Notes: generated from the letters alone by a model not told the origin. DNA of 64,000 nucleotides from a virus (IMGVR_UViG_3300032046_004423:31358-95357), one strand, 5' to 3'. Shown: positions 44,807-64,000, counted from the first letter of the stretch. A program made the numbers and translations.

Positions 44807-46273
44807 CTACCTTTTATAAACATATACTTCTACTTTGTCATCCTCAAATACTGCTAGGAGTTTCATATTCGCATAGTCACTCTTCTCACTAGGCTTCCCA
44901 TACTGGTACCAGTAGCATTCTGGACTAGTCTTACATGTCATAGGCTTAGTTCTATACACTATATACTCACCTCCATCCTCCATATATTTTCCTTTAGTAA
45001 ATCTACTATATATCCAGGGAGCAATCTGAGTAGAAGTAGTATAAGTTACATTACTTTGACTATTCAAGTAAGCTATAGCCTCCTTATCTACTGGTCTAAT
45101 AGCACTATTATAACCAAACCAAGTAACAAGTGGAAGGATAGAACCTAGTATAGCTAAGGATATGAAAGTAGGTAAGATCATCCTCTTTATCTTTCTATTC
45201 TTAACTAGAATCCCTACAAAGATAGCTGCTAGTATAGCTAAAAAGGTTGAGAGGTCTAGTGCTACCCTAATAGAGTCAGAGGCTAGAATAATCTCAGGTA
45301 TAAAAGCTACAATAAATACTAGTAAAATAAGTCCAAGCAGTATTGTACCTTTATCAAGAACTAGTCTATGTTTTATCCTGAGTATTACTATAAGAGCTAG
45401 TCCTGAGAAAAGAATTGCTGAAGTACAGAGAGGTAAGTATATTGTAAAGAATTGGAAAGGAGATACTCGTGGAATACTTGTTAGGATTGAGTTAAAAGGA
45501 GCAGCGGCTGCAAGCAACTCAAGATTTAAGAAATCTGGTAGAACAAGGCAAGGAATGAGAAGGTTGGTCACAAGGAATGCCCCAGAAAATAAACCTATCC
45601 TCTTCAATTCCTCTTTATTCCTTTTAGCAATATAATATATTAGAGCTCCTACCAAAAATAGGGCTATTGCGTTAAACACATAAAGAGCAGTAAGTGAGTG
45701 CAAGACTCCACAAAGAAGAAAAAATATAAGTGAAAGTACTAACTGGTAATCTTTATTTTCTTTTATCCAAAAAACTAAGAAGAGTATAGCAAGAGGCAGT
45801 ATAACATACATTCCCAGTACATTAAAGATTGTTCCACAGTAGAATAAAGTAAGGATATTGGGAGTACAGAAGAATACAATGGGAATACTTACTAGTCCTG
45901 CCCATTTATTAACTAGTTTAGCTAGTAGAAAATAGATTGAGGTTGCAGCAAGAATTAAAACAAGGTAATTAAAGATTAGAAAGAGGGTATCAGTCCCAGC
46001 CCCAGTTAGTCTACAGATTATGCCTAGCAGTATAGGGCCATAGTAGCTCACTTTAGGCCAACCCTCTACCATAGGTATACTGTCATGTGCTACTACTTTA
46101 TCCATCACTTGGAGATGCATAGCTGTATCATCTCCAGTTGACGAATAGATATAATGGTAGTGAACTAGCGGGAATAGGACTATGGTACTGAAAAGTATAA
46201 AAAATAGGATAGGTAAGAAGTACTTACTCCTTAACCTATCCTTTAACCAATTACCTATGTCTCTTGGGTGCAT
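44807..46273 (-). CDS. polytopic membrane protein (about 12 TM), candidate GT-C-type glycosyltransferase
   Basis: 488 aa, hydrophobic throughout. There is a DD in the first loop after TM1 (YSSTGDDTAMH). Confidence 0.35.
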   Translation of the reverse strand: MHPRDIGNWLKDRLRSKYFLPILFFILFSTIVLFPLVHYHYIYSSTGDDTAMHLQVMDKVVAHDSIPMVEGWPKVSYYGPILLGIICRLTGAGTDTLFLIFNYLVLILAATSIYFLLAKLVNKWAGLVSIPIVFFCTPNILTLFYCGTIFNVLGMYVILPLAILFLVFWIKENKDYQLVLSLIFFLLCGVLHSLTALYVFNAIALFLVGALIYYIAKRNKEELKRIGLFSGAFLVTNLLIPCLVLPDFLNLELLAAAAPFNSILTSIPRVSPFQFFTIYLPLCTSAILFSGLALIVILRIKHRLVLDKGTILLGLILLVFIVAFIPEIILASDSIRVALDLSTFLAILAAIFVGILVKNRKIKRMILPTFISLAILGSILPLVTWFGYNSAIRPVDKEAIAYLNSQSNVTYTTSTQIAPWIYSRFTKGKYMEDGGEYIVYRTKPMTCKTSPECYWYQYGKPSEKSDYANMKLLAVFEDDKVEVYVYKR

Positions 46274-46506
46274 AACTTCCTTTCATATTACTCTTAATGG
46301 AAGTAAGCTCTCCACGTAGAGACTTAGCAAAGTGTTTAAGTACCGACTTCTTTTTCTTCATCTGCTTCTCCTTAACTTTTTATTCTTAACTTCCTTGGGA
46401 CTCTTAACTATCTTCCTAGGGTCAGGACCCATACCATACCAAACACCCTGCAGAAATTGTTTAGTGATATCTCCCAAACTACTAGTAAACTTTTTAGGTA
46501 GTAATT

Positions 46507-46974
46507 TCACCATTTCACCTCCTTTCCAGTATAGCCAACCCTTTGCCTAGCTACCCTATCTAGTCTTTCTATCATACTCCTAGTTAGGCCCAGCCCTCTA
46601 GCGAGCCTCTTACTCCTTCCTATTGACCACTTTATTTTACTAGTCTCAATTCGGTACTTTAGAGCAAAATAATCAGCACACAACTCCCTAAATAAGTTAA
46701 GGGCGTGATACTCATACCAATTCCAAGTATTTATAGCCTCATCGACGTCAACTGGGAACTTTATATGGCCCAGCTCATGGGTGAATACTCTAGCCGATTC
46801 CTTGGTTGGGTAACCTTTCTTTATTGCTATATATCTAGGCTCCTCAGTCTCCTCAGATATGCCAGCCGCTCCTTCAAATTGTCCCTCCTCTTCATGGGTC
46901 ATATACCTAACTACAATGGGCATCATCTTAATGACCAACAAAACTAGGAATCCCATCAACGTAAACCATTCCAC
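46507..46974 (-). CDS. HExxH zincin, member 1 of a four-member ImmA/IrrE-like paralog family (N-terminal TM)
   Basis: FTHELGHIKFPVD. N-terminal hydrophobic helix. Confidence 0.4.
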   Translation of the reverse strand: MEWFTLMGFLVLLVIKMMPIVVRYMTHEEEGQFEGAAGISEETEEPRYIAIKKGYPTKESARVFTHELGHIKFPVDVDEAINTWNWYEYHALNLFRELCADYFALKYRIETSKIKWSIGRSKRLARGLGLTRSMIERLDRVARQRVGYTGKEVKW

Positions 46975-47863
46975 TTAAAGAAACTATTCTTTCTATCTGA
47001 ACAGTATAGGTTATCCCATCTGTGACAACCACAATCGTGCCATTGACATCGGTGCCATAGATTTTAGCTCCTATTTCCTCTAGAGCTTCAATAGTCTCTG
47101 CGTGAGGATGACCATACGGGTTACCAATCCCTGCCATATAAATAGCAACTTCCGGGGTAGTCACCGCCAGAAAAGCTGTTGAAGAAGCCGTCCTAGAGCC
47201 GTGGTGCCCCACTTTGAGAATTTCTACATCTGGAACAATGCCCTCCGTGAGCATACTTGCCTCAGCTTCCTGCTCTGCATCCCCAGTAAACAAGAAGTCA
47301 ACCTGTCCATAGCTAAGGCTCAAAACAATAGAGTTATCATTAGTGGTACCACTCAAACTAGCAGGATTGAGTACATTAAAGGTAAGGTTATTAACCTGGA
47401 TAGTATCTCCTCTCCTAGCCTCATATACCTGAACCCCTTCAGAGTTGACCGCTGACATGAACTGGGAGTAGGTTTCGGAAGTACTTATGTCTCCATTAAA
47501 CCAGATTTCGTCAACTTTAAAAGCATCTAAGACTCCGATTAGCCCCCCAATATGGTCAGCATGGGGATGAGTAGCTACTACGACTTCAAGTGGCCCATCA
47601 ATATAGTTATCAATATAGCCAACTACATCTGAGGACTTTCCTCCCCCATCAATTAGTACTTCGATATCACCAAGGTCTATAAGTATAGAATCACCCTGCC
47701 CAACATCAATGAAGTGGACTGTCAAGGCAGCTGGACTGGTAGTTATGATACTACCATCATCTGAGGTAGGTAAAGTAGTATTAGTTACGGGGGTACACCC
47801 TACAAGTCCAAACAGTAATGAAATTACCAGTATGGAAACTAGACTTATAGCCTTAGATATCAT
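46928..47863 (-). CDS. metallo-beta-lactamase-fold lipoprotein
   Basis: Lipobox LFGLVGC. HPHADHIGG (HxHxDH), then VGHHGS. Confidence 0.75.
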   Translation of the reverse strand: MISKAISLVSILVISLLFGLVGCTPVTNTTLPTSDDGSIITTSPAALTVHFIDVGQGDSILIDLGDIEVLIDGGGKSSDVVGYIDNYIDGPLEVVVATHPHADHIGGLIGVLDAFKVDEIWFNGDISTSETYSQFMSAVNSEGVQVYEARRGDTIQVNNLTFNVLNPASLSGTTNDNSIVLSLSYGQVDFLFTGDAEQEAEASMLTEGIVPDVEILKVGHHGSRTASSTAFLAVTTPEVAIYMAGIGNPYGHPHAETIEALEEIGAKIYGTDVNGTIVVVTDGITYTVQIERIVSLSGMVYVDGIPSFVGH

Positions 47864-48594
47864 CTAAGAAGTCTCCTTATCTGGCTAAGTTGCTTCTTAT
47901 AAAGATTTCTCTTCTTATGCCTATTACCATCCACATTCAACTTCATATTCCTAAATCTGGAGAAATCTCTCAATTCTTCATCTGGTAAAACTAGCTTAAT
48001 TTTTTCCATTCTATTTCCTACTACCTTCCAATTTACTACGCCTTCTCATGTACCCTCTCATGCGCTCTCTCATATACTGCTTTCTTTTCTCAGTCTTAGC
48101 CTGCTTCCTCCAGCCTCTCCTAGAAGCTTCCTTACCTTTTTCAGTCGCGAGATATCTCTTCTGGGTTAGTCTCCTGCCCTTTAATGCTTCCTCTTGTGAA
48201 AAGTACTTCCTATATTTCCACTTAGTTCCTCCTACTGGTTTAAAACTTACCCTAGATTCCTGCTGGGCAGTACTACCAGGTTCTATTCTAACTCCCTTAA
48301 GATTATTCTTCTTCGCAACCCTGTGAATCTCGTCAACCTCATCGGGGAATAGGGACTGCTCGATAGTCACAAACCCACCAGGACTAGCATGGCCAGACCC
48401 GCCAGCACAACTAGTATAAGTTGGGTAACCTAATCTGAGTAACTCATGCACAAAGCCACGTATCTCCGGGTCTACCTCTTCTGCCTCAGCCTTTATATAG
48501 TCATCAACTGACCAGCCAGGAGTATTGGGTAATTCATAGGTTTCTATTTCTTTTATTACTTCATCCTTAATCCTGCTTGGCATTTATTCTCCTC

Positions 48595-49179
48595 CTACTC
48601 CAGATACCCTTCCTTAACTAGTTCCTTTCTAGCTTGCTTTATATACTGAAAAGGAATATGTATACCTCTTGCAGTTTGCTTTACTAGCTCAAAAGACTGG
48701 CTAGGCTCAAAGCCAAAGTCTCGAATACCTTTTCTTACAAAAAAGGCTATATCTTCATACAGATAAGGAAGTCCTTCAGTAGCTCTTCTAGAAATGAAGT
48801 CTGCCTTTAAGTCCCTTCTAACAAAACCTAGAAAGTCACCCCAGTCCTCCAACTTACTAGTAGAAGGACCTTTCTCAGGATGACCCAGGACAATATGTCC
48901 CGCCTCATGCCTAATGATACCCCAATCTCCTATAGCAGAAGGAGATATATCAACAACATATAGAGGTCTCCTCTTTTTCCCACATATCTCAAAGCAAAGG
49001 TCTACCTCACCAGATATACCCTCCAGATTTTTGTTATAGTAAAGCTTAATCTTTGTATCCCTAGATATTAGGCCTCTCTCCTTACCCATATCTAGCACAG
49101 TCCTCAGATAACTACCAGCCTCATGCATGAACTTATGCTTGCCTGCAGTTAGCTTAAATCCTTCCTGACTCTCTTCCAA
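48595..49179 (-). CDS. ImmA/IrrE-like zincin paralog 2
   Basis: IRHEAGHIVLGHPE followed by EDWGDFLGF. Confidence 0.45.
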   Translation of the reverse strand: MEESQEGFKLTAGKHKFMHEAGSYLRTVLDMGKERGLISRDTKIKLYYNKNLEGISGEVDLCFEICGKKRRPLYVVDISPSAIGDWGIIRHEAGHIVLGHPEKGPSTSKLEDWGDFLGFVRRDLKADFISRRATEGLPYLYEDIAFFVRKGIRDFGFEPSQSFELVKQTARGIHIPFQYIKQARKELVKEGYLE

Positions 49180-49366
49180 CTATTTTAATAACCTCCCCTA
49201 TACTATTTTTACGTCTATCTACAAAGCTTCCTTAATTGGTATGGGATGCCACTTGCCCGATTAAATGGATTCGGAAAAGGGCGAATCCACTCCAGAACAC
49301 GACGGGAGGAGTAGGTACGCAATGGACTACGCTGTTCTAGTTCCCCTGGCAGAGCCCATCATTATA

Positions 49367-50452
49367 TTAGGGTAAAACTTTCTCTCTTAAAGCAGGAATA
49401 TGGGAAATTATATCTTCCCTAACCTCTGGCCTCTGAAAATATTTACTTAGATAGCATACAAGATAAGAGAGTGCTATAATACTAAGGAAGATCATTTCGA
49501 CCATTTGGTAATATATACCTGCCCATCCTATACCTAAAACTACCGCAATTAAAATAGCTACTAATAACCAGTACTGCTTTTCCTTAATAGCAAAGTATAA
49601 ACCAGGAATAACGAGGACTGCAAAAGCTGCTATACCTGAGTGAATTAGGAATATACCCAGTTGAGGAAGAATATTCCCAGCCCAGAATATCGTTCTTGCA
49701 ACTTCACTCATAGCCAACCAATGGTTAATTAAGTAGAAAGGAGATCCTCCTATAACCCAAGTTGCAATCCAGTAAGGAACTATAACAGTTGCACTAAGTA
49801 AATACTTCCAGTCTCTATCTTTAATTATTAGAGGTAATAGAAATGCTACTGCTGGTAATTTACTAAGAGCCAGAGCAGCTCCAGCTAAGTACTTCCACTT
49901 ACTCTCCGTCTCAGATAAATAAATAGTAAGAATTAGGAAGAATAGCATAAACGCCTCGTGGTAAAAGTAAATACCACCAAACATAACTATCTCATCAAAG
50001 AGTAGTACAGGGCTAATAGTAATTACTGCTAACATTGGACTTAGTCTTCTTCTCAGTATGAGGAATAGTAAAACTAAGGAACCCATAGTTAATGTTATCG
50101 GGATAGCTCTCAAGCCTTTGATATTATCTGTAGCCTTAACAAAAGGATAAACTAGTACACTATCTAAGGATGGATGGACCCAGACCTGCTTTTCATAAGC
50201 TAGTCTATTTACCTTAACTACTATATCTTTACCCCACACCTGTTCTGACTTATGGGTTATTAAATCGGGTCTATCTACTAAAATCCAATCAGCGGATGAA
50301 GAGTAGGCAGGTAATCCTTCACTTACTTTATAAAATACATACTCATCAGAGTAGACAGGATTCTTCCAAGCAGTGTATCCTAGAGTAAATAGGATTGCTC
50401 CAAAGACTATAATCCCAATTAGTAAAGGCAGTTTACTTCTCAAATGCTTCAA
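49367..50452 (-). CDS. polytopic membrane protein with a DE after TM1 (possible GT-C-like)
   Basis: TM1, then PVYSDEYVFY, then about 8 further TM segments. Translationally coupled to the upstream GT2 gene. Confidence 0.35.
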   Translation of the reverse strand: MKHLRSKLPLLIGIIVFGAILFTLGYTAWKNPVYSDEYVFYKVSEGLPAYSSSADWILVDRPDLITHKSEQVWGKDIVVKVNRLAYEKQVWVHPSLDSVLVYPFVKATDNIKGLRAIPITLTMGSLVLLFLILRRRLSPMLAVITISPVLLFDEIVMFGGIYFYHEAFMLFFLILTIYLSETESKWKYLAGAALALSKLPAVAFLLPLIIKDRDWKYLLSATVIVPYWIATWVIGGSPFYLINHWLAMSEVARTIFWAGNILPQLGIFLIHSGIAAFAVLVIPGLYFAIKEKQYWLLVAILIAVVLGIGWAGIYYQMVEMIFLSIIALSYLVCYLSKYFQRPEVREDIISHIPALREKVLP

Positions 50453-51851
50453 CTAAGTCACACCCAAATACGTACTTAAAGCCAATAGGCTTTAATCCAA
50501 ACTTAAGACACATTTCCTCAAGTGTCTTTCTAGTAAATCTAAATCTATGTTCTTCCTTATAGGGAGTAAACTCCTCTGCAATTCTCCAAAGTAATTTACC
50601 ATAGTCCGGGGTTGCAATAACTAACCTCCCATCTCTAGCTATTACCGAGGATACTCTCGATAGAATTTCTTCCGGATTACTAAGATGTTCTAGAACCTCA
50701 CTGATAATTACTAAATCAAACTCTTTACCAGCTTGTATTCTTCTAACATCCCCAACCTCATACCTTATATTTGCAGGAGTCCTACTCCTCATAAACTTAA
50801 TCTTGTTCTCATTACTATCAATACCAAGACCCTCACAGTGATAGGAGTTAAGTAAGGGGGAGCTACCGCAACCTAAATCCAAAATCCTATCTGGCTTACC
50901 AGAAAAACTAACTATTACTTTACCTATTTTTCTTTTCCAGTACTTCTGAACTGGATTACCCTTATACCAAGCATTCCACTCATAGTCTGCTTCACCAGGT
51001 TCCCTACTACCCGGAAATACAAGTACTTTCTCTAGTGAAAATCTTAATAGTAACCCTACTGCACTAGCAAGTAGCATACTTAGCATATACCACAGTCCCA
51101 TAAACTCGGTTAAGATGTAGGTACCAGCAAAAATTAAAGCTGTAGTAAGTGCTGCAATCGCCCCAAATAGTCCCAATCTTAAATACTTACTAACGTATGA
51201 GGATAATACTTGCTTTGTGAAAGCTACTATAGTTCTCTTACTATAAAACTTACTTACCCCAAAGATTCTCTTACTGAAAGTCATTGGCACTTCCTTATAA
51301 GTATAGTAGTTACCTTTCACGAGTACCTCAAGCAAAATCTTTGGAACATCCTCTCTAATAGTCCCGATAAGACCCTTTCTTACTGCGAAGAATCCAGAAG
51401 TATTATCTTTAACTCTAGTTAGGAATGGGTAGGATAGTAAACAAGCAACCCTCGAGATAAACTTCCTCTTAAAAGTAAAACCAGGAGATGAGCCATCTTT
51501 TATGTATCTACTTCCAACTACTAGATCAAAGCCCTCAAATATAGACCGAAGTAAGTTAGATACATCCTCAGCCCTATGCTGTCCATCCCCATCCATTACA
51601 ACTACTACTTCGTTACTAGTCTCTTTAATACCTTTCAGGATTGCGGATGTTAATCCTTTCCTATCACCTTCAACTAGCTTTATATACCCGTCTCCAATCC
51701 CCCTAATGCCTCTAACCAATTCTCTAGTTCCATCGGTTGAACCATCATCTACTATAATAATCTCACAGTTTGGGCTCATCAACTTTGGTAGCAGTACCTT
51801 TAGATTTTCCTTCTCATTTATAGTAGGTATTACAATAGAATACTTTTCCAT
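50433..51851 (-). CDS. GT2 (DPM1-like polyprenyl-phosphate sugar synthase) + TM segment + class I SAM methyltransferase fusion
   Basis: GT2: IVIPTINEKENL, IIVDDGSTDGT, VVVMDGDGQHRAEDV. TM around residues 215-270. MTase: ILDLGCGSS, GIDSN, FDLVIISEVLEHL. Confidence 0.8.
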   Translation of the reverse strand: MEKYSIVIPTINEKENLKVLLPKLMSPNCEIIIVDDGSTDGTRELVRGIRGIGDGYIKLVEGDRKGLTSAILKGIKETSNEVVVVMDGDGQHRAEDVSNLLRSIFEGFDLVVGSRYIKDGSSPGFTFKRKFISRVACLLSYPFLTRVKDNTSGFFAVRKGLIGTIREDVPKILLEVLVKGNYYTYKEVPMTFSKRIFGVSKFYSKRTIVAFTKQVLSSYVSKYLRLGLFGAIAALTTALIFAGTYILTEFMGLWYMLSMLLASAVGLLLRFSLEKVLVFPGSREPGEADYEWNAWYKGNPVQKYWKRKIGKVIVSFSGKPDRILDLGCGSSPLLNSYHCEGLGIDSNENKIKFMRSRTPANIRYEVGDVRRIQAGKEFDLVIISEVLEHLSNPEEILSRVSSVIARDGRLVIATPDYGKLLWRIAEEFTPYKEEHRFRFTRKTLEEMCLKFGLKPIGFKYVFGCDLVEAFEK

Positions 51852-52403: not shown

Positions 52404-52919
52404 CTACTTTACTAATCTTTCTACTAACCTTCTACCGTAGGTTATAGTTCTTTTAGGAACTTTCAGTTCAATCGATACTTTGGTAACCAAACTTAGGGCT
52501 TTCCTCCTACCAAATCCAAAGTCTTGCATTATTATTACCACTAAGTTTGCTAGGTCAGAGGAAGAAATCCTACCCTCTAAGTGCCTCATAACCTCAAGTT
52601 CGTTCCTAGTTACTACTCCTGGTTCCCTAGACTCTTTATGGCCTAACTTAGCATGAGCTAACTCGTGGCGAAGAGTCTCCCTAGCAGCTCCTTTTCTCTC
52701 CCTTCTAGGAACTAGTACTAAACCAAGTAAACCCTCTTTACTGGGAGGATAGTAAACACCTTCCTTTCCTCGAGTAATAATTATATGAGGTAGCTCAGTC
52801 CTAAGCAAGCCTACTTCTTCAGCCGCCTTATATATTATCCCAGGAGGTATCTCCTTGTAACCACCAGTCCTAGTTATATTAGGGAACTCCTCTTTGGCTA
52901 AATAGTACTTACCTGTCAT
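52404..52919 (-). CDS. ImmA/IrrE-like zincin paralog 3
   Basis: LRHELAHAKLGHKE followed by QDFGFG. Confidence 0.45.
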   Translation of the reverse strand: MTGKYYLAKEEFPNITRTGGYKEIPPGIIYKAAEEVGLLRTELPHIIITRGKEGVYYPPSKEGLLGLVLVPRRERKGAARETLRHELAHAKLGHKESREPGVVTRNELEVMRHLEGRISSSDLANLVVIIMQDFGFGRRKALSLVTKVSIELKVPKRTITYGRRLVERLVK

Positions 52920-53329
52920 CTAAACCCCCCAAGGCAGCACTCAGGCCTAGTACTTTCGTTAACTAGATATGGCTTACCCTCCTTGTCAACACCCCTGTTA
53001 AGGATAAGGGAGGAATATCTAGTAACTCCAAAACTCCTTCTAATAAAATCTAAGGCCTTCTCCTTATCAAAATCCAAACAACTAAAAACATCTAAGTAAA
53101 TAAAGTTAAACTCAGGATACGTATGTATAGTTATAGAACTCTCACCTAGAAATATAACTCCTGAAAGTGCAGTACCTTCTCTAGTAGGGAATGGGAAGTC
53201 AACAATTACAGGCTTACCAAAAGGGTGCATTCCAGAAACTAAAGCTGCTTCCAGTAACCACTCCTTTAACTTCTGCTCCCTACTTAGAAGCTGTGAATTA
53301 CTACAAAAAGCATCTACTATCAAGTGCAC
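52916..53329 (-). CDS. speH: SpeH-type pyruvoyl-dependent S-adenosylmethionine decarboxylase proenzyme
   Basis: LSGVIFLGESSITIHTYPEFNFIYLDVFSC aligns with Thermotoga SpeH [30 protein letters not shown] (ES cleavage site). Confidence 0.7.
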   Translation of the reverse strand: MHLIVDAFCSNSQLLSREQKLKEWLLEAALVSGMHPFGKPVIVDFPFPTREGTALSGVIFLGESSITIHTYPEFNFIYLDVFSCLDFDKEKALDFIRRSFGVTRYSSLILNRGVDKEGKPYLVNESTRPECCLGGFR

Positions 53330-53758
53330 TTAGCATATCCCTCCTTTCTCTAGTACTTCAGTCCTGCCACTTTGCAAGCCATGAGCGAACCAATTCAAGT
53401 CTTGTCTTGCTCTCCTACTAACTTTAATACCCCTCGCAGCTAATCTCCTCTCAACAAGTCCAGAGGCTTCAGATGGACTGAGCCCCCAATCCTGAACCAA
53501 CTCGCATACTATGGAGATACCAATCTTGTAAGTTAAAGGCTTATCCATTGCCCTATATGCATAGGACTCAGCATCTAACTCTCTATCAATAAGCTCATTA
53601 AGAGCCATTAAGCCAGGCTCATGTCCCAGTACCTTATGCCCCAACTCATGGAGCCTAGTTTTAGTACTTGGCTTACCATAGAACTTAATAACACCACCAC
53701 CAAGATAAGCACTAGTATTCTCCTCCCTACCAGGCCTTGGCTCAAGAAACTTACTCAT
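53330..53758 (-). CDS. ImmA/IrrE-like zincin paralog 4
   Basis: LHELGHKVLGHEPG followed by QDWGL. Confidence 0.45.
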   Translation of the reverse strand: MSKFLEPRPGREENTSAYLGGGVIKFYGKPSTKTRLHELGHKVLGHEPGLMALNELIDRELDAESYAYRAMDKPLTYKIGISIVCELVQDWGLSPSEASGLVERRLAARGIKVSRRARQDLNWFAHGLQSGRTEVLEKGGIC

Positions 53759-55346: not shown

Positions 55347-56015
55347 CTATAAGTCCTCAACTGGAATCCTCATCTGCTTTCCTGTAAACGGTATAACCTC
55401 TTCAGTATTATATGCCCCAAAGAAAGCAGGGCCAAACACTCGAATCCTACTCCTCCTACCTGTCCTCAAGTCAAGGAATCTAGTAGTTGCCCATCCCGTT
55501 ACGCAATAGCCCAAGCATCTCGGACATACCTCTCCAGTTCCCTTACAAAAAGGACAATCTGTGTTTGGTGCCTCACCATCTTTACCACATGCAGGACACA
55601 TTACTCCACCCCTATTAACCATACCCTTACCACCACACTTCCTACATGGTTCTTCTTTTTGATACCTACAAGTACCCCTAACATCAACCTGTCTTCTAAA
55701 CCTTTTGTCTATAACATCTATATGGTGGAAGCATGCGTATAAGTCTACACCCCTTTTTCTAGTCTGAACAGTATAGTAAGTCCAAAGTATATTTGCCCTA
55801 CCCCCCGATCTTCTAGCATCAAGATACTGATGAGCTTCATCCAGTAATGTAACGCAGTTATTGAGAACTTCATCTTGTAGATGTTCCATAAAAAACTGCA
55901 TATCAAACTTAGTATAGGGGAAGCCCAAGTGTATATTGGATATTATCTTCCTTCCATACTGGTAATGTTCACTACAAGCCAGAGCAACAGCAGTTAAGGT
56001 CTTACCACTGCCCAT
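55347..56015 (-). CDS. Zot-like P-loop ATPase fused to a DnaJ-type CxxCxGxG zinc finger
   Basis: Walker A GSGKT, Walker B LLDEAHQ, Zot-type RKRGVDLYACFHHIDVIDKRFRR. The C-terminus has CRKCGGKG, CPACGKDG, CPFCKGTG and CPRCLG. Confidence 0.6.
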   Translation of the reverse strand: MGSGKTLTAVALACSEHYQYGRKIISNIHLGFPYTKFDMQFFMEHLQDEVLNNCVTLLDEAHQYLDARRSGGRANILWTYYTVQTRKRGVDLYACFHHIDVIDKRFRRQVDVRGTCRYQKEEPCRKCGGKGMVNRGGVMCPACGKDGEAPNTDCPFCKGTGEVCPRCLGYCVTGWATTRFLDLRTGRRSRIRVFGPAFFGAYNTEEVIPFTGKQMRIPVEDL

Positions 56016-56049: not shown

Positions 56050-56235
56050 TCACCTCCTGCCCTCTTTAAACTCCCTTACTAACTCTTCCTCAGTAAGATA
56101 AGTATACGGAGAAGCTAGTATAGGACTAAATACTACTTCTTTACTCCCCAGAAACTGTCTGTAAGCTATAGCTATGGCAGATAAGGTCATTCCAGAACCT
56201 TTCACGCTCTCAAAACTGACTATATTAAACTCCAT
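56050..56235 (-). pseudogene. Duplicated N-terminal fragment of the Zot-like ATPase with a disrupted Walker A (GSGMT)
   Basis: FESVKGSGMTLSAIAIAY...SPYTY compares with FEGVMGSGKTLTAVALAC...FPYTK in the adjacent gene. It is separated from that gene by a stop and a frame change. Confidence 0.4.
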
Positions 56236-56776: not shown

Positions 56777-57559
56777 TCACTGAAGCCTCCTGCGCTCTCT
56801 AATTGTCCTTAACCTCTCCTTATGCCTCTCCTTAGTTAACTGACTTCTCGATTTGACTGGCTCACGTGGGATTTTACTCCACTCAGACCAAAGCTTACCC
56901 TGTGACTCAGTCCTGACCTCAGTCCTCATCTGCCAAGTAAGAGGTACTATCACCATTATAATGAAGACAAAACCCAGTACCTGTGTCCAAGGACTATCTA
57001 GTCCAAGGTTGGTTACGTTTCCTATCAAAAGCCAGATTCCTAGCACTAACCAAATCAGGGCAGCTGCTATCCTCATAAGCAACTGACCCGTGTATCTAGC
57101 TAGGAAAGTCAAGAACCCAGCCATTATAATTACTCCGATAAACAAAAACGATTGACTCATAAAGTTTCCAACTCCAGTAGTACCAGTTTCTTCCCAAGTA
57201 CCATTCGCAGTTTCAGACCATGCTCTATAGTATATCGGCCCAACAAGACCGAGATTCTCAATCCATTGGGTAGCACTAGTACCACTCCCATAGTAGATCT
57301 CAAATCCATCACTCCTATCTGTAGGCAGCCTATCGTAAGCTGCTCTTACTAATGTATTTACTGCACCCGGACCTTTTGTCCATGATATCCCTATCTCATA
57401 GTCACTAATGTAGGTTAAGGTAAGTCCCCCTGGGGCACCAACAATATAGCCTACCGCTGTTATCGTTATAGTTTCCGTTGAGTCTGCTGATACTAGAGTT
57501 GGAGCTACTAGTAACAGTAGTATGACTACAAAGAAAGCTAATCTTTTCCACTTCCACAC
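56777..57559 (-). CDS. membrane-anchored FN3-like surface protein (signal peptide, FN3, 3 TM, basic tail)
   Basis: Signal ...LVSADS. LTLTYISDYEIGISW...IYYRAWSETANGTW has an FN3-like pattern. Three hydrophobic helices follow, then RKERHKERLRTIRERRR. Confidence 0.5.
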   Translation of the reverse strand: MWKWKRLAFFVVILLLLVAPTLVSADSTETITITAVGYIVGAPGGLTLTYISDYEIGISWTKGPGAVNTLVRAAYDRLPTDRSDGFEIYYGSGTSATQWIENLGLVGPIYYRAWSETANGTWEETGTTGVGNFMSQSFLFIGVIIMAGFLTFLARYTGQLLMRIAAALIWLVLGIWLLIGNVTNLGLDSPWTQVLGFVFIIMVIVPLTWQMRTEVRTESQGKLWSEWSKIPREPVKSRSQLTKERHKERLRTIRERRRLQ

Positions 57560-58421
57560 TTTGTTACCTCATTCGATAGTTCGCTTGCTAAAAACTCCCT
57601 GCACAACTTAACTCTCATGCTAGAACATGGCATAATTCTTCCTGCTAGTCTAACCAGCCATATACCAATTTTAAGTCTTACTGTTCTTATCATTCTATAG
57701 CCCCTATAATAGCTTCCAAGCATCTGTCCACCATATCCTCCTCCCAAGGCTGCAAGGTAGTCTTGAACTCACCAAACTCTACACCATCAAAGCCATCTTC
57801 ATCCCAATAAAAACGAACTGGCACTCTTATCTCAATTACCTCTTTATAATTCTCAGTAGATATAGAAGCAACCTCTATAGTCATTGTTTCACAACCTCAA
57901 TTTGCTTTTTGTAATATGGACGCTTACCACCCCTTCTCTCCCACACTAGGGCTGCCTTGTAAGTAGTCTTACGCCCAATCTGTTTAACCTTTGAGCCAGG
58001 AAATTCCCCCTGGTGCTCAGCCTCTCGTCCATTTAGGTCATAGGTAATACTTCGTAGTACTACCTTACGTCCTATCTTGAGTTGGTATTTATAGGTATCT
58101 TTCTCTTTAGAGGGTATGGATGCAACTTCAATCATAGTGTTCCTTAACCCAAGCTAAGGCAGCTTCTCGTGTAGTTTTTCTACCAACTTGTTCAACTGTA
58201 GCATCAGGATAACGGGCCTTGATGCCTGAACTCACTAGTTTAATACTACTCGAGCACTGTCTCATTATTACGGTATTCTTTCGCCTCACAAGAATCTTGT
58301 ATGTATCTTTAACTTTCACTTACTTTCTCTCCTTTACTGCCTACTATAGGAAGAACATAGTAGAACATTAGCCAACTCCCGATACCCCAGAATGCTACCA
58401 TCCACCATACTCGTAGATACT

Positions 58422-58958
58422 CTATTGCATTACTACAAGCCACCTTGAGCAAAGTTCCGTTTGTATTGTTCCTCCCTGTGTTATATCCTTAACGCTTATC
58501 CAAAACTCCCACTTGTCTGCTGTGATTACCACATTGGCAGGAATATCAAGAGCAACTAGTATTTCTCTTGTCTCGTAGGGCATTAAGACAGGACTACTAT
58601 CAGCAATAACTACCCAGCTATCCGCTTCAATAGGGGGCTCAGCATAGCCCTCAGCTACGTAGTCAGGCTCACGGTAGACTACAGCAAACTCTGCTGTTGC
58701 ATCGTTACCATTGTGTACTGATAGTTCCCATTCAGCCCTAGCACCAGGGTAAAAGTTCCCTATCTGGACTTTAGCTGGGCTAATCCAGGTCCTATCAACT
58801 GGAGGTTGCCCATCAGTAGTTGTATTGCTAGTTGGTATATTGTCTGCTGGGATAAATAGGCTACATCCTGTTAGTAGTAAAACTCCTATAATTAGTAAGG
58901 GAGTTATTAACTTCAGTTTCCTTTCCATATTCACCTCATTTTTGAGTCTAGGGGGCAC
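58422..58958 (-). CDS. secreted lipoprotein
   Basis: Lipobox LLLTGCS. Probable start at the internal MERKLKL. Confidence 0.5.
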   Translation of the reverse strand: MPPRLKNEVNMERKLKLITPLLIIGVLLLTGCSLFIPADNIPTSNTTTDGQPPVDRTWISPAKVQIGNFYPGARAEWELSVHNGNDATAEFAVVYREPDYVAEGYAEPPIEADSWVVIADSSPVLMPYETREILVALDIPANVVITADKWEFWISVKDITQGGTIQTELCSRWLVVMQ

Positions 58959-59004
58959 TTTCCTTTCAACCTCAATCGCCCGCTTTCCACGAGTCCTAAT
59001 TAGA

Positions 59005-59547
59005 TTAACCAGTTGCGTTCATTGCTGCTGTTAGTGTTATGGTATCTTGCTGAGCATCACCATGCGTAAAGGCATTTGGGGCATCAAGCTGTACTCCCCA
59101 CTGTTGAGAAGCACCATTATCCAAGTCAGTTTTGAAGCTAACAGTGCTTCCACTAGGTATTGTAGTGCCAGGGAAGCTTCCAGCAGAAAGAGCAAAACTT
59201 AGCTGTCCTGTGTTTGAACCTGCTGCACCATAAGTCCAGTTAGTACTACCATCTTTTGCCCAGCCGTTACACCCGATAGTTATGTTACAAGCTACACTCC
59301 CCTCATTGGTCACATTGAAGCCATTAAGAGTTGTGTTCTCATCTGTGTCAGCGAGTACCGTGCCAAAGTCAAAGGTGGTTAGGTTATTACTAATACTAAC
59401 CCAGCCCGGTGTAGCATTTATGGTCACATTTTGGGTTGTAGCAGCAGCAAAAGCCATTCCACTAAAACCTAGCAATCCAGCTACAGGTGATAACATTAGG
59501 ATAGCTACTAGAGCTATTCCCAACAACCACTTAAAACCTTTCCTCAT
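59005..59547 (-). CDS. secreted CARDB/DUF11-like domain protein; stand-alone paralog of the C-terminal domain of the 881-aa protein
   Basis: Signal peptide. NATPGWVSISNNLTTFDFGTV...FNVTNEGSVACNITI...QWGVQLDAP parallels NTPASWDFGTV...FNVTNTGDVPVNISI...QWGLELYTP. Confidence 0.5.
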   Translation of the reverse strand: MRKGFKWLLGIALVAILMLSPVAGLLGFSGMAFAAATTQNVTINATPGWVSISNNLTTFDFGTVLADTDENTTLNGFNVTNEGSVACNITIGCNGWAKDGSTNWTYGAAGSNTGQLSFALSAGSFPGTTIPSGSTVSFKTDLDNGASQQWGVQLDAPNAFTHGDAQQDTITLTAAMNATG

Positions 59548-59659
59548 TTACCTTTCCCTCCTTTCTTATTATTTTCTAGAGCCTGACCGACCACAGGCAG
59601 TTCAGTTTTCTTACCGTAACCTTTTGGTTTCTTATTATTACGTCTTCCTTTCTTTCCCA

Positions 59660-62305
59660 TTATGATGCCTCCGTCGCAGTTAAAGTAACTACTCCTGACT
59701 TCTCATAACCACCGCTGTAACTTGTTGGAGTATATAATTCCAGTCCCCACTGCGTGCTGTTACCGACTCCCAAATTAGTTACAAGATTATTGTATGTAGG
59801 TTCTTTCTTAACTATAATTGTATAATCACCCCCTACAACTCCTGCCTTCAGCCCATATGTATCTGCCCCTGGTGTTGCTGTGTCATTGAGAGTCCAAGTC
59901 CCTACACCTGTCATATTAGTCCCACTTATGCTTATATTAACTGGCACATCCCCAGTATTGGTGACATTGAAGGCAGTTAACCCTGTAGAATAGGTTGAGT
60001 TCTCCCATACTGTGCCGAAGTCCCAACTAGCAGGAGTATTAGTAATATCTACCTTCAAAGTAGTAAAGTTAGCTGTGCTGTCTGCCCAATCACTTCCTGC
60101 ACTGTTATTGGCATAACATCTGTAATAGTAAGTCGTATTTAGTGTCAGGTTGGAGATGTCTGTATAAAATGTCCCATTTGCTAAGACTCCCTTGTTCTCA
60201 TTATTAGTCCAGTTGCTACTGTTTGTTACTCCATCACTGGTCCCCCAATAGATATGGACTGTACAGTTCTCTCCTCCGTCATTAGTTAAGTTTCCATTTA
60301 ATCTTGCAGTCGTTGTCGTAACATTAGTAGCACCAACCCCATTTGTTACTGTGGGAATTACAGACACTGATGGTTCACCTACAGCATAGCCAACAAGCCA
60401 AAAGTCAGTATTTACGTTAAGTATCTTTCCTTCAATAATATTGTTGGAGTCACATCCTACAAAAGCACTAGGATGAATACAAGCATAGTTATAAATCTCC
60501 TTAGAACTTCCATTCCTCCTCAAGCCATAAGGATATTCTATGCCATCTGTAGTAGTTATCTCAATAAAACCCATTGCAGCGTCAGATGGCAGTGTACTAA
60601 GATCGGTCCAGCTTCTATCTACACTTAAACTAAGGTCTGTGGCATTAGTATAAAAAGTCGCTCCAGCTGTTATATAGCCAACTAAGTACAAGTCAACTGA
60701 GGTATTTCCAATATATCCTTCACATACACTGCCAGAGTCGCACCCTACTATCCAGCCAAAGTCGTTGTGTACTTGCACATCATTCGTTCTATTGTCAGAT
60801 GAACCATTATTTCTTAGACCAAATTTATACTCAGTCTGATTACCAACTACCTCAAATATCAGCCCAATGGCAGCATCGTAGGTTTCGAAGGTGCAATCTA
60901 TGTCAGTCCAGGCATTAGCCACAGTTAGAGACTTATCAATGGCACTAGTTAAGAAAACCACCCCAGTTTCAGTATAGCCAGCTATGTAGATATCAATAGT
61001 AGTCGTGTTGCCAACGTATACCTCAAAGATGTGGTTGGAATCAACTCCGATAGCTGCCCAAAAGAGTGAGTAGTAATAAACAGTAGCTGTTCTGTTATCT
61101 GTACTACCATTCTTGCGCAAGCCAAAAGCTGGGTTACCACCACCTACATCCGCACAACATAAAATTACACCAGTAACATCAGCTCCTAATCCACTTGTAT
61201 AGTCGTCGAGGTCAACATCAGTCCAGTTATTAGCAGTAGTTAGTACTACTTCAATTGGTTCTAATGGGAAAAAGGTTTGTATTAAAGTAGTAAAGTTTAC
61301 TTCAGCTCCATAGCTGTACCCTGCTGAGTTGTGAGCATAAGCTCTAACATAGTACTTAGTCCCTGCAGTAAGCCCAGTAATTAACTCGTTGAAGGTACCA
61401 GTGTCAAATGAGCCTGTTTCCTCTGTTATATTGTCAGCTACTGTAGGACTTCCTATAGTATTCCAGCAAACTCCTCGCTTGTCACAGTTTTCTCCCCCAG
61501 TAGCTGTTATATTTCCATTTCCAGTAGCTTTAGTTACTAATACTTCAGAAGCCGCCTGAGTAGTAACTGTTGGGGGAGTTATATACGTAACATAGAGTTT
61601 AGCTCCGTAAGTAGAGTTTCCAGAAGTATCATAGCAATAACTACGAAGAGTTTTGCTCACATTAGCATTCGGCAGAGCAATTAAGACAATAGCTGTAACA
61701 GCAGTTGTATTCACCAATTCTTGCAGTGGAGCAGCTAAGCTTGGAGAGTTGTACCATCCAACTACTCCACCAGTCACATTGTCCTGTACCCAGGATACAT
61801 TCGCTACTGTTCTTGTCCGATTGGTTGTGTTAGTTATATTATAAGCATCTGTTGTAAGTGTAGTAGGAGATGCTGCCAACTGGAAATACAAATTTATGTT
61901 AGCATCATCGTAAGAAGTGCTATATAAATACAATGAAATATATGCTGTCCCGATAGTAGCATTCTTTGGTATACTAACTTCCCAACGGTGTGCTCCCCAT
62001 AGTGGTACGGGAGATGTTCCAGACCTGTGATAAACAGTAGTGCCAGCAATATCCATGGCACCAGTAGATTGAAGCTCATACCCATCATCACTACTAGCAT
62101 TTACTTGAATATCTATTATAGTAGGACTGTAAGACTGTACTATTGGTATTTTAGGTGGCAGTGTATTAACAGCAAGAGCTACATTAGTACTTACCGACAA
62201 ATATCCTGTGCTGATATTTATAGTTACTCCACCAATAGGCAAGGACAGAAAGCCCATTGCTCCTATCAGGATTATTGCCAAGAATACTGCTAACTGCTTT
62301 CTCAT
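59660..62305 (-). CDS. large secreted repeat protein (881 aa): FN3-like modules, three tandem repeats of about 95 aa and a CARDB-like C-terminal domain; candidate adhesin or receptor-binding protein
   Basis: Signal peptide. The YYVRAYAHNSAGYSYGAEVNFTTL and YYYRCYANNSAGSDWADSTANFTTL pair. Triple repeat FGLR(K/N/R)NGS..., GxDS....E.Y.GNT..D.YL.GY. More than 40 NxS/T sequons. Confidence 0.7.
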   Translation of the reverse strand: MRKQLAVFLAIILIGAMGFLSLPIGGVTINISTGYLSVSTNVALAVNTLPPKIPIVQSYSPTIIDIQVNASSDDGYELQSTGAMDIAGTTVYHRSGTSPVPLWGAHRWEVSIPKNATIGTAYISLYLYSTSYDDANINLYFQLAASPTTLTTDAYNITNTTNRTRTVANVSWVQDNVTGGVVGWYNSPSLAAPLQELVNTTAVTAIVLIALPNANVSKTLRSYCYDTSGNSTYGAKLYVTYITPPTVTTQAASEVLVTKATGNGNITATGGENCDKRGVCWNTIGSPTVADNITEETGSFDTGTFNELITGLTAGTKYYVRAYAHNSAGYSYGAEVNFTTLIQTFFPLEPIEVVLTTANNWTDVDLDDYTSGLGADVTGVILCCADVGGGNPAFGLRKNGSTDNRTATVYYYSLFWAAIGVDSNHIFEVYVGNTTTIDIYIAGYTETGVVFLTSAIDKSLTVANAWTDIDCTFETYDAAIGLIFEVVGNQTEYKFGLRNNGSSDNRTNDVQVHNDFGWIVGCDSGSVCEGYIGNTSVDLYLVGYITAGATFYTNATDLSLSVDRSWTDLSTLPSDAAMGFIEITTTDGIEYPYGLRRNGSSKEIYNYACIHPSAFVGCDSNNIIEGKILNVNTDFWLVGYAVGEPSVSVIPTVTNGVGATNVTTTTARLNGNLTNDGGENCTVHIYWGTSDGVTNSSNWTNNENKGVLANGTFYTDISNLTLNTTYYYRCYANNSAGSDWADSTANFTTLKVDITNTPASWDFGTVWENSTYSTGLTAFNVTNTGDVPVNISISGTNMTGVGTWTLNDTATPGADTYGLKAGVVGGDYTIIVKKEPTYNNLVTNLGVGNSTQWGLELYTPTSYSGGYEKSGVVTLTATEAS

Positions 62306-63138
62306 TTCTTAGCCACCATAACTAAATTCTGAGGAATAAGACCATCATTGTAAGGAAGAATTTTTCCCTCTCTTAACAATACAGTATCCATTTCTCCTAC
62401 TGAGAATCTTACAAGTTGATGTTGTTGCCTAAATATTATTTTACTCATCCACTCAGCAAAAGTTCCTCCCTTAGGAATAAGATTAAGCATACCCTTTGCT
62501 GTTCCACGTAACTGCCATACAATTTTGGTCATACTGGAAAAGTAGTCTTGACCAAAGACCTGCACTTCTCCAAAGTAGTCGAGTAACAGTTGGTGGAGTT
62601 CTTCTAGACAGAACTCCTGAGTATGACACCAGCTAAGTGGCTTGTTTAGTATTGGAGAAGTTGCATTTCTGTTTGGTGTAGAACAGATGAAACTGCCATC
62701 CCCTTTTAATACTCTCTTACACTCTGACAAGAACTTCTTATACTCTTTGATATGTTCGATAGTCTCAAGAGATACTACACAATTAAAGGAATTGTCTACA
62801 AAAGGTAACATAGCAGCGTCTCCACTAATAAATTCTGTCTTCCCACCTCCATAGTATTTAGTTGCATTAGATATAGCTTCTAGCGACTTGTCATACCCAA
62901 TAACTCTACTAGCTCCCTTTTTAGCTAAATAGCTTGAGCCATAGCCAACTCCGCAGGCAATGTCCAGAACATACTTGCCAACAACAAACTGAGAAGCAAA
63001 GACATATCTACCTATATGGTACTGAGAATCCAAGTATGTTATCTCACTACCCTCTAACCACGACCCCCACTCTTGCTTCAGTCTTCCCTTAGACATTCTA
63101 CAATCTTGTGTATTTACCATCCTACCCCTTTTAAGCAT
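62302..63138 (-). CDS. class I SAM-dependent methyltransferase
   Basis: VLDIACGVGYGS (motif I), GYDKS (post I), FNCVVSLETIEHI (motif II). Confidence 0.75.
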   Translation of the reverse strand: MLKRGRMVNTQDCRMSKGRLKQEWGSWLEGSEITYLDSQYHIGRYVFASQFVVGKYVLDIACGVGYGSSYLAKKGASRVIGYDKSLEAISNATKYYGGGKTEFISGDAAMLPFVDNSFNCVVSLETIEHIKEYKKFLSECKRVLKGDGSFICSTPNRNATSPILNKPLSWCHTQEFCLEELHQLLLDYFGEVQVFGQDYFSSMTKIVWQLRGTAKGMLNLIPKGGTFAEWMSKIIFRQQHQLVRFSVGEMDTVLLREGKILPYNDGLIPQNLVMVAKK

Positions 63139-64000
63139 CTGAGTACCTATCCACTAATGATTTATCAAATACCTGCTCCAGCTCATTAGTTGCTTTATCC
63201 CAAGTAAACTCTTTAATATGCCTATAACCTGCCTTGGCAATATTCTCCCTTAATTCCTTATCTTCTATCAATTTAATGATGTTATCAGCCAGCAACTCAG
63301 GATAATATGGTGGAGAGAGCAAGGCAGTTTTATCTGATATAGTAAAGTCGGGAACTCCACCAACATCAGTTGATACCACGGCACACTTGCACGCCATCGC
63401 CTCCATTGGTGGGAGTCCAAAACCTTCAAAGTGACTTGGGAAGATAAAGATATCACAGGAGTTATAGACCTTCCTCAGTTTCTCACCAAAAGGTCTTCTG
63501 TAGAACTCTGCATACGGGGGTACTCCTGCCCCTTTATTTAGACCAAACATGACCAACTGAATATTGGGATGTACTTGTCTTGCATACTCGAAAGCCTTGA
63601 CTCCATCTCCAGTACCCTTCCACTCTTCCTTACGATATGGTATAAGAACTCTAATCCTATCATTTTCCTTTCTCCCATCAGAATAGAAATCCCCCAAGTT
63701 CACAGCATCAAATATCACTGCTTCAACTGGTGCATTGAGGTTGCGGAGTATATTCTTTAACCAGGTTGAGATAACAATGTTTTTTAGCCCAAGTCTATAC
63801 GAATTATTAACCTTCTTCTCCGGACCAGTCCAGGTCTCATAATGCTGGATGAGATAGAATTTCTCACCCTTGTTCTTACTAAACTTGCTTACATAGTAAG
63901 CCGTCTCCCACATCGTGGCCACGATAATGTCGGCATCGGGAATATACTTCTCAGTAAGCCTAGGTACCCTTATCAAGTCTGCTTTGAGGTCGAACCAATC
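63131..64000 (-). CDS. GT4 (GT-B) glycosyltransferase, 5' end beyond the window
   Basis: FIFPSHFEGFGLPPMEAMACKCAVVSTDVGGVPD is the E..G....EAMA.G.PVV signature. The ORF is open to the window edge. Confidence 0.75.
   Translation of the reverse strand, partial: DWFDLKADLIRVPRLTEKYIPDADIIVATMWETAYYVSKFSKNKGEKFYLIQHYETWTGPEKKVNNSYRLGLKNIVISTWLKNILRNLNAPVEAVIFDAVNLGDFYSDGRKENDRIRVLIPYRKEEWKGTGDGVKAFEYARQVHPNIQLVMFGLNKGAGVPPYAEFYRRPFGEKLRKVYNSCDIFIFPSHFEGFGLPPMEAMACKCAVVSTDVGGVPDFTISDKTALLSPPYYPELLADNIIKLIEDKELRENIAKAGYRHIKEFTWDKATNELEQVFDKSLVDRYSDA

Follow-up and report, generated by a model that had tools for sequence, protein, structure and literature searches.

A predicted extracytoplasmic glycosylation system with a synthase–methyltransferase fusion and two GT-C-type membrane proteins on a large virus-like mobile element

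A set of glycosylation genes in IMGVR_UViG_3300032046_004423:31358-95357, a stretch of 64,000 nucleotides (nt) referred to below as the window, is probably best explained as an extracytoplasmic glycosylation system of the three-component type (GtrB plus a GT-C transferase) with added methylation, carried on a large virus-like mobile element, the likely acceptors being the element's own secreted or surface proteins. The genes lie between 44.8 and 64 kb, where all transcription is from the minus strand. All five genes named in an earlier sequence-only reading of this DNA are present on that strand and at the places given there: a fusion of a family 2 glycosyltransferase (GT2) with a methyltransferase, two polytopic membrane proteins, a stand-alone methyltransferase and a GT4-type glycosyltransferase. 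The single locus which that reading described is not borne out, as they form three separate groups in a 19-kb block with about 25 other genes.

Serotype-converting phages and the decoration of Gram-positive cell walls offer well-known examples of cassettes that combine a lipid-linked-sugar synthase with a GT-C enzyme. New here are the fusion of the synthase to a methyltransferase, two GT-C families without curated models, the setting, probably in the Dehalococcoidales, and secreted proteins rich in N-x-S/T sequons. The carrier is thus a large virus-like element of a poorly studied group of monoderm, S-layered bacteria. If confirmed, the proposal would give a function to the fusion family, a synthase hard-wired to a methyltransferase, an architecture widespread in Dehalococcoidales and DPANN archaea and uncharacterised; it would also add two families to the GT-C catalogue and bring protein glycosylation, possibly Asn-linked, into the virion or surface-protein biology of the Dehalococcoidia.

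The Synthase–Methyltransferase Fusion

The fusion gene (50433-51851, minus strand) encodes 472 amino acids (aa) and is recognised in Pfam, PDB, NCBIfam and PHROG searches. Residues 5-136 are a GT2 domain (PF00535, 4e-26, the model proposed earlier as a check), residues 229-284 give a weak match to GtrA_DPMS_TM (PF04138, 2.5e-5), and residues 309-454 are a class I methyltransferase dependent on S-adenosylmethionine (SAM; PF13489, 2.4e-14, and also PF13847 and PF08241). Several methyltransferase models of Pfam are above the cut-off in this C-terminal part, as they are in the stand-alone methyltransferase encoded at 62302-63138. The best PDB match is the Dol-P-Man synthase of Pyrococcus furiosus, PfDPMS (5mlz; E 3.8e-38, 134.7 bits, residues 3-273), which among solved structures is the nearest relative of the GT2 domain and of the start of the membrane domain, followed by the bacterial ArnC (7e-14, 54.7 bits). 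The top NCBIfam models are PgfS, AglJ, ArnC and Dol-P-hexose transferase, all scoring under their equivalog cut-offs, and the PHROG match is to a GtrB-like family annotated as O-antigen conversion (1.2e-24). Judged by these similarities, the GT2 domain is of the polyprenyl-phosphate-sugar synthase type (DPMS/GtrB), in agreement with its earlier description as DPM1-like, and the fusion represents the membrane-associated GT2 of the GtrB/DPMS/ArnC type that is typical of three-component systems.

The two domains had been said to be joined through a transmembrane (TM) segment. The fusion itself is confirmed, and the segment turns out in a hydropathy scan to be a hairpin of two adjacent helices, at about 223-248 and 250-279. 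With two helices between them, the GT2 and methyltransferase domains share one side of the membrane, and this side is the cytoplasm, since nucleotide sugars and SAM are available there. PfDPMS has four TM helices and lacks a methyltransferase domain, whereas in the window protein the two-helix hairpin is followed by a methyltransferase of 190 aa. Among 13 homologues of the fusion the DxD motif of the GT2 domain (D87, D89) is invariant, and so are the SAM-binding loop G327/G329/S330/S331/P332 (LDxGCGSSP) and the acidic residue D345; from this conservation both domains are probably catalytically active.

About 50 sequence clusters have the GT2 and methyltransferase domains fused, usually with the TM hairpin as well, at 28-87% identity, and share a linker motif, DYEW...KGN..QKWWK. 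In Dehalococcoidales and DPANN archaea such fusions, 28-50% identical, are built of the same three parts and carry no annotation beyond 'glycosyltransferase' or 'dolichol-phosphate mannosyltransferase'. When deposited phages were searched with the fusion by tblastn, no record covered more than 47% of the query.

About 1 kb upstream of the fusion gene, and separated from it by two genes, lies a gene for S-adenosylmethionine decarboxylase (52916-53329, minus strand; PF02675, 6.8e-23), a SAM consumer in the vicinity of two SAM-dependent methyltransferases, which is kept in the related contig L001 described below.

Two Unrelated Polytopic Membrane Proteins

The gene of the smaller membrane protein (361 aa; 49367-50452, minus strand) overlaps the 3′ end of the fusion gene, as had been noted, by 20 nt if it starts with the TTG at 50452 or by 11 nt if it starts at 50443 as in the JGI gene call. 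The Asp-Glu pair reported after the first TM helix (TM1) is D36-E37. The protein itself has no significant Pfam, NCBIfam, PHROG or PDB-sequence match: it scores nothing on PMT_2 (PF13231) at E up to 0.1 and matches PMT (PF02366) only at E 1.4, and as it falls short of the PMT_2 gathering threshold it is not a member of that family by Pfam's rule. A word-indexed search found 2 relatives, whereas HMMER, run exhaustively over 1.84 billion representatives, yielded 59, mostly of 300-400 aa; a length of 361 aa is at the small end of the size range of GT-C enzymes. In the alignment of 43 members of this family, designated A3, E37 is invariant and D36, F40, P48, W56, H93, P103, P148, Y164, K198 and P207 are conserved in at least 90%, the consensus being DEYVF...LP.Y...W.HPPLA..L.YP, with H93 in the HPPL motif. 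An Asp-Glu motif after TM1 and an HPPL-type motif, both present in the A3 family, are characteristic of PMT and ArnT-type enzymes. With matches counted at E up to 0.1, PMT_2 is found in 7 of the 43 members (best 1.5e-8) and GT87 in 4, and nothing else recurs. One relative, P0130, which is 29% identical to the 361-aa protein (E 4e-43 with the query profile), reaches 29.8 bits on PMT_2 against a cut-off of 26.1 in a match starting at the HPPL motif, while another, P0128, 50% identical, matches GT87 at 8e-4. Compared with PDB sequences, the A3-family profile gave no more than a chance match. Since relatives match PMT_2 and GT87 and the Asp-Glu and HPPL motifs are conserved, the 361-aa protein can be considered a candidate divergent small member of the GT-C clan, distantly related to PMT_2 and GT87-like, the matches to these models being at the level of the family. 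The test with PF13231 and PF02366 suggested in the sequence-only reading therefore succeeds in part, the two models matching relatives of the 361-aa protein and neither of the window proteins.

The larger membrane protein (488 aa; 44807-46273, minus strand), characterised through its homologues, an AlphaFold2 (AF2) model and Foldseek, has approximately 12-13 helices and ends, after the last of them, in a conserved soluble domain of about 100 aa. It had been described as a 12-TM protein with an Asp-Asp pair after TM1; the pair is D48-D49, and in the loop after TM1 the residues G47-D48-D49, H53 and D58 are invariant in the protein and its five homologues (31-54% identity), which constitute family A1. 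No Pfam, NCBIfam, PHROG or PDB-sequence match to it was found. Its AF2 model has a pLDDT of 63 and a pTM of 0.64, with the membrane core mostly at 70-90, and the top 22 structures retrieved with it by Foldseek are all GT-C enzymes (DPY19, STT3, PglB, AglB, AftA, ArnT, ALG9). A viral fold search in BFVD returned weak matches only, E 2e-3 or worse. On the strength of the model, the 488-aa protein has the GT-C fold and belongs to a family without annotation; it combines a multi-spanning core, an acidic motif in the first extracytoplasmic loop and the fold match, and its location near the GT2 provides the polytopic GT-C transferase of a three-component system. Fold similarity alone cannot separate oligosaccharyltransferases from other GT-C enzymes, and the WWDxG motif of STT3, AglB and PglB is absent from the A1 alignment, in which the equivalent position reads W-[FL]-[GS]-Y-[NT]-S. 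Families A1 and A3 are unrelated by hhalign (probability <4%), and thus the 488-aa and 361-aa proteins are not paralogues.

Conserved Linkage in Related Contigs

Genes for the fusion and for members of the two membrane families, the latter assigned by searches with hidden Markov models, occur together in several contigs, which are virus-like, with many ORFans on one strand. The order in the closely related contigs L001 and L002, whose fusion is 86% identical to that of the window, is fusion, a 200-aa gene, an A3-family gene and, at the contig end, an A1-family gene. In L004 the fusion is followed by a 183-aa gene, a separate GtrA gene and an A1-family gene. L005 has a methyltransferase, GT4, DUF2206, a 115-aa gene, the fusion, an A1-family gene and a radical SAM gene, and L009, with a fusion of approximately 40% identity to the window copy, continues with an A1-like 321-aa gene (E 1e-28), an A3-family 366-aa gene (E 3e-97), a 165-aa gene and TMEM260_N. 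Since genes of these two GT-C families recur next to the fusion in four independent contigs (L001/L002, L004, L005 and L009), the conserved gene order argues that the linkage is functional and not due to chance. In a further contig, L090, an A1-family gene is accompanied by GT2, epimerase and UDP-sugar dehydrogenase genes.

The 200-aa gene of L001 (3904-4506) encodes a soluble protein, is inserted between the fusion gene and the gene of the 361-aa GT-C, and is not found in the window, the relative being 83-86% identical; thus the overlap of the two genes in the window is not a fixed property of the cassette. Stand-alone methyltransferases recur in the related cassettes of L005 and L007, and the GT4 and methyltransferase of the window are only generically similar to their counterparts there and not demonstrable orthologues. 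After the fusion, L007, an element of 118.9 kb (GCA_004196255.1, SDBU01000086.1, from a Loki's Castle sediment assembly), encodes a membrane protein of 337 aa, a methyltransferase and two proteins resembling arylsulfotransferases (11347-12477 and 13198-14394), which hints that some relatives may sulfate the glycan as well as methylate it.

Sequon-Rich Secreted Proteins beside GT4 and a Second Methyltransferase

The distal group of glycosylation genes is found at 62.3-64 kb, where a GT4 glycosyltransferase and another SAM-dependent methyltransferase had been reported, and both genes are present. The GT4-type enzyme (GT-B fold; 63131-64000, minus strand) is represented by about 289 C-terminal residues and matches PF00534 at 2.9e-28 and PF13692 at 1e-20. 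No stop interrupts its reading frame between 63976 and the window's final base, 64000, and so the gene is cut by the window and not truncated; PF00534 covers the C-terminal domain, most of the N-terminal domain lying beyond the window end. The class I SAM methyltransferase of 278 aa (62302-63138, minus strand) matches PF08241 at 3.8e-23 and PF13649 at 2e-19, the Methyltransf_11 match being generic and every NCBIfam match far below its cut-off. There is an overlap of 8 nt between the start of its gene and the GT4 stop, and one of 4 nt between its own stop and the start of the gene of an 881-aa protein (59660-62305, minus strand), which is followed after 112 nt by the gene of a 180-aa protein (59005-59547, minus strand).

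Each of the latter two proteins has one N-terminal hydrophobic segment, the larger being secreted or anchored and the smaller secreted. The 881-aa protein contains fibronectin type III (FN3)-like domains and three internal repeats, and the 180-aa protein is 33% identical over 128 aa to its residues 752-877 (E 2e-12). By its own composition, the 881-aa protein should contain 15.6 N-x-S/T sequons, and it has 40 (z 7.3); for N-x-T the figures are 10.1 expected and 29 observed (z 6.6). The reversed motif [ST]-x-N is found 16 times against 15.7 expected (z 0.1), and the controls N[ST] (z 0.2), N..[ST], D-x-[ST] (z 0.7), G-x-[ST] and [ST]-x-[ST] are likewise at expectation, with |z|<1. The 180-aa protein has 8 N-x-T motifs against 1.9 expected (z 5.0; z 3.2 for N-x-[ST]), and N-x-S/T enrichment was found in no other protein of the block. 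Such a directional excess of N-x-S/T is the usual mark of selection for Asn-linked glycosylation, and the 881-aa and 180-aa proteins are therefore candidate acceptor glycoproteins. The suggestion that the system may serve the element's own secreted proteins, one of the alternatives in the sequence-only reading, gains support from this specific enrichment in two proteins co-transcribed with the GT4 and the methyltransferase.

Sequon enrichment extends to a related element. A 974-aa secreted protein of L004, which shares FN3-like segments with the 881-aa protein, has 43 N-x-S/T sequons against 12.9 expected (z 10.5). The enrichment is weak in L009, where the A1-like gene encodes the short protein of 321 aa (z approximately 2.5), and the value for L007, which has the fusion and another membrane protein and no A1-family gene, is z 0.0.

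A Zot/pI-like P-loop ATPase, with Walker A at its extreme N-terminus and a Cys-rich zinc-ribbon C-terminus, is encoded in the window at 55347-56015, together with 56050-56235 (minus strand). The Zot-like ATPase of L004 is 36% identical to it, and related ATPases adjoin the large secreted protein in L004 and, as judged by eye, in L007 and L009. The large secreted protein, small secreted proteins, a lipoprotein, a membrane protein and the Zot-like ATPase are kept together in related contigs, a set suggestive of a conserved module, for morphogenesis or secretion, in a family of elements not described before.

Comparison with Known Systems

The three-component systems, reviewed for GtrA/GtrB/GtrC of Shigella and Salmonella phages, CsbB/YfhO, GacI/GacL and PgfS/PgfM (PMC8035078, PMC11127046), resemble the window genes in that a cytoplasmic GT2 makes a polyprenyl-phosphate-monosaccharide and a polytopic GT-C transfers the sugar outside, and in that the genes are adjacent or overlapping and carried by mobile elements. 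The comparison with gtrABC made earlier therefore holds for the synthase and GT-C anatomy. It fails for the flippase: neither a separate GtrA gene nor any open reading frame for a small four-TM GtrA-type flippase was found in 44-64 kb, the half-length GtrA_DPMS_TM match inside the fusion being the only trace of this domain. Unlike in the known systems, moreover, the synthase carries a fused SAM methyltransferase, the GT-Cs are two in number and belong to families that Pfam does not model, the genes of the system are spread over 19 kb, and the host is likely a monoderm member of the Dehalococcoidales in which the acceptor is likely a protein, in contrast to the O-antigen or teichoic acid modified elsewhere.

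By analogy, the closest functional parallel appears to be the Agl pathway of Haloferax volcanii, in which the GT2 AglD loads mannose onto a separate dolichol phosphate and the mannose, once flipped, is attached by AglS on the cell exterior to a glycan already linked to Asn, a sugar of this glycan being methylated by AglP, a SAM methyltransferase (PMC3871713). The logic of AglD/AglR/AglS and AglP, a GT2, a methyltransferase and an outside transferase acting on N-glycoproteins, agrees with that proposed for the window; however, the Agl genes are archaeal, chromosomal and separate, whereas the nearest cellular homologues of the window fusion are bacterial. With the PMT_2/GT39/GT83/GT87 enzymes (Pmt, ArnT, PimE), the A3 family shares the DE-type motif after TM1, the HPPL-like motif and a conserved lysine, and the 488-aa protein shares the GT-C fold, although neither window protein reaches the Pfam threshold.

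Proposed Mechanism and Its Alternatives

In the proposed mechanism, the GT2 domain would move a hexose from a nucleotide sugar to polyprenyl phosphate at the membrane's cytoplasmic face, the sugar being mannose-like or glucose-like by similarity to Dol-P-Man and Dol-P-Glc synthases. The methyltransferase, tethered on the same side by the hairpin, would most likely O-methylate the lipid-linked sugar or the same acceptor glycan, and the model accordingly predicts a polyprenyl-phosphate-O-methylhexose as the donor. A flippase, possibly aided by the GtrA-like hairpin, would then move the lipid-linked sugar across the membrane, where the two unrelated GT-Cs, one with the DE motif (361 aa) and one with the GDD motif (488 aa), would transfer it to extracytoplasmic acceptors that differ in specificity. 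To the same end, GT4 and the second methyltransferase, acting in the cytoplasm, may build or modify a lipid- or protein-linked glycan. Both the layout of the operon and the excess of sequons point to secreted or surface proteins of the element itself as the most likely acceptors.

Several observations weigh against this proposal. The five glycosylation genes are dispersed over 19 kb amid unrelated genes, and the separate GtrA flippase gene is missing from 44-64 kb. Neither GT-C of the window itself matches any Pfam, NCBIfam or PDB sequence model, and the AF2 model of the 361-aa protein, built from two sequences, has a pLDDT of 42 and is unusable. A sugar as the substrate of the fused methyltransferase is unsupported by the nearest named models, UbiG, MetW and BioC. 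The sequons imply Asn-linked glycosylation, which needs an oligosaccharyltransferase; none was identified in the window, we know of none in the Dehalococcoidia, and no relevant report was found in the literature on oligosaccharyltransferases or N-glycosylation in this class. The cellular fusion genes of Dehalococcoidales, unlike that of the window, have no GT-C neighbour in the loci examined and sit amid housekeeping genes or beside PAP2 and ABC-2 transporter genes, and so the native role of the fusion need not involve a GT-C. Finally, the GC content of the window is 40%, as against 47-55% in Dehalococcoidales loci, and the proteins scanned included no recognisable capsid, portal or terminase.

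The most serious alternative, to be given perhaps a quarter of the weight, is conversion of the host surface: a hexose or methylhexose would be added to an envelope polymer or S-layer protein, blocking superinfection or altering a receptor, and the element's own proteins would not be the main target. The parts match those of phage cassettes of GtrB and GT-C, as seen in the PHROG match to O-antigen conversion, the genes of the 488-aa and 361-aa proteins are distant from those of the secreted proteins and lie among non-structural genes, and two different GT-Cs would suit two host acceptors. However, the sequon enrichment of adjacent secreted proteins in two independent elements favours the element's own proteins, and the cassette's neighbour in related contigs is the conserved module, with its ATPase, membrane protein and large secreted protein. 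Host-surface conversion is compatible with the glycosylation of the element's own proteins and does not exclude it.

It is less probable, though worth considering, that the fused methyltransferase acts on something other than the lipid-linked sugar, that is, on a lipid (polyprenyl, or quinone-like as for UbiG), on a completed glycan as a terminator in the manner of WbdD or WsaE, or on a protein, and that the fusion serves only to co-localise two activities. In NCBIfam the models nearest to the methyltransferase domain are indeed UbiG (6e-12), MetW and BioC, none reaching its cut-off, and a form of the fusion without TM helices exists in cellular genomes without GT-C neighbours (P0047; loci L008, L011 and L013). 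Yet the retention of the fusion and of its linker motif in about 50 clusters across 28-87% identity argues for coupled chemistry on one substrate, and the additional stand-alone methyltransferases that recur in the cassettes of L005 and L007 also speak against this alternative.

The sequons invite a bolder and rather improbable proposal, in which family A1 is a new sequon-directed, Asn-glycosylating GT-C, oligosaccharyltransferase-like but without WWDxG, brought by the element and using polyprenyl-monophosphate-(methyl)hexose supplied by the fusion. If true, it would explain the presence of secreted proteins packed with N-x-T in a bacterial lineage without known N-glycosylation. The z values track the family, from 7.3 in the window and 10.5 in L004 (full-length A1) through approximately 2.5 in L009 (A1-like, 321 aa) to 0.0 in L007 (no A1), and an excess of N-x-T motifs in the large secreted proteins, 2.5- to 3.3-fold, is seen only in the presence of A1; Foldseek places STT3 and PglB at ranks 4-15 (E approximately 1e-3, TM score approximately 0.5), and a conserved extracytoplasmic C-terminal domain starts directly after the last TM helix. 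Against it, W-F-x-Y-N-S stands in place of WWDxG, Pmt4, AftA and DPY19 score as high or higher in the fold searches, the correlation with the sequons comes from four loci only, and the linked synthase makes a monophosphate-linked monosaccharide, not the diphosphate-linked oligosaccharide used by oligosaccharyltransferases.

That the polytopic proteins are transporters or structural membrane proteins, with the GT2, GT4 and methyltransferase genes beside them by coincidence, as the sequence-only reading had allowed and as the lack of significant sequence-model matches for the window proteins themselves might suggest, is close to refuted, since for both proteins the evidence favours GT-C: in the Foldseek search with the 488-aa model GT-C enzymes take all top places and transporters have a probability <0.2, relatives of the 361-aa protein match PMT_2 and GT87, the acidic motifs after TM1 are conserved, and the synteny with the fusion recurs in related contigs.

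Host and Nature of the Element

The host is probably a bacterium of the Dehalococcoidales, as judged from the relatives of the fusion. The closest homologue of the fusion, P0010 (50% identical), is encoded on a contig with rpsF, ssb, leuS and the genes of homoserine dehydrogenase and GTP cyclohydrolase I. In a collection of 185,579 species, one genome each, the best four matches over the full length are from Dehalococcoidales or Chloroflexota metagenome-assembled genomes (41, 36, 33 and 33% identity). On L010, a contig from one of these, the TM-containing fusion lies amid housekeeping genes, beside PAP2 and an ABC-2 transporter; like L006, it is a cellular contig, housekeeping genes such as rpsF and ssb being present. 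Two window proteins with lipobox-like signal peptides, LVGC (46928-47863, minus strand; a metallo-beta-lactamase fold, PF00753, 1.7e-18) and LTGC (58422-58958, minus strand), are also consistent with a bacterial host, and the PolA and UvrD-type helicase that the element encodes point the same way. Dehalococcoidales are monoderm, some of them with an S-layer-like envelope (bioRxiv 10.1101/2025.02.02.636118). Because the closest cellular homologues of the fusion belong to these bacteria, the carrier lipid may be bacterial polyprenyl phosphate rather than dolichol, which would correct an assumption implicit in the earlier description.

An archaeal host had been the first guess, owing to the PfDPMS match, the archaeal names among GT2-only hits and the sequons, and was downgraded when the closest cellular homologues of the fusion proved to be Dehalococcoidales. 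A scan for sigma-70 promoters and intrinsic terminators gave no more than the shuffled expectation and was uninformative on host or operons.

The element is virus-like, and in the light of the scan for capsid, portal and terminase mentioned above its status as a virus, taken for granted earlier, stays an assumption. Scans of IMG/VR with the A1 and A6 alignments found no relatives, and a genome scan with the A5 alignment found no matches. The window belongs to a contig of 109.6 kb; its end had no exact match in JGI metagenomes or IMG/VR, and neither the 278-aa nor the 881-aa protein was retrieved by exact look-up.

Other Features of the Window

Genes are on the plus strand up to approximately 38.9 kb and on the minus strand beyond it (1-38900 versus 39000-64000), and there the GC skew changes sign too, being +0.2 to +0.3 in the first part and -0.1 to -0.35 in the second; thus two gene blocks converge there. 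In the plus-strand block a family A DNA polymerase is fused to a uracil-DNA glycosylase and a 3′-5′ exonuclease (33937-36270), and it is accompanied by a protein-primed family B polymerase (37247-38917) that is 24-26% identical to the enzymes of tectiviruses, autolykiviruses and Methanosarcina spherical virus; two replicative polymerases within one element are unusual. The same strand encodes a Cas4-like nuclease (13787-14839), a TROVE/Ro60-like protein (18049-19350), a radical SAM protein interrupted by an intein (24714-26561) and an SPFH/Band 7 protein of 664 aa (31022-33016).

It is also worth mentioning that four small proteins with an HExxH..GH motif are encoded on the minus strand, scattered among the glycosylation genes (46507-46974, 48595-49179, 52404-52919 and 53330-53758). 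Three of them are demonstrable paralogues (25-31% identity, E 1e-3 to 7e-7) and the fourth has a weak Peptidase_M78/IrrE match, so that the set can be regarded as a putative metalloprotease or antirepressor-like expansion.

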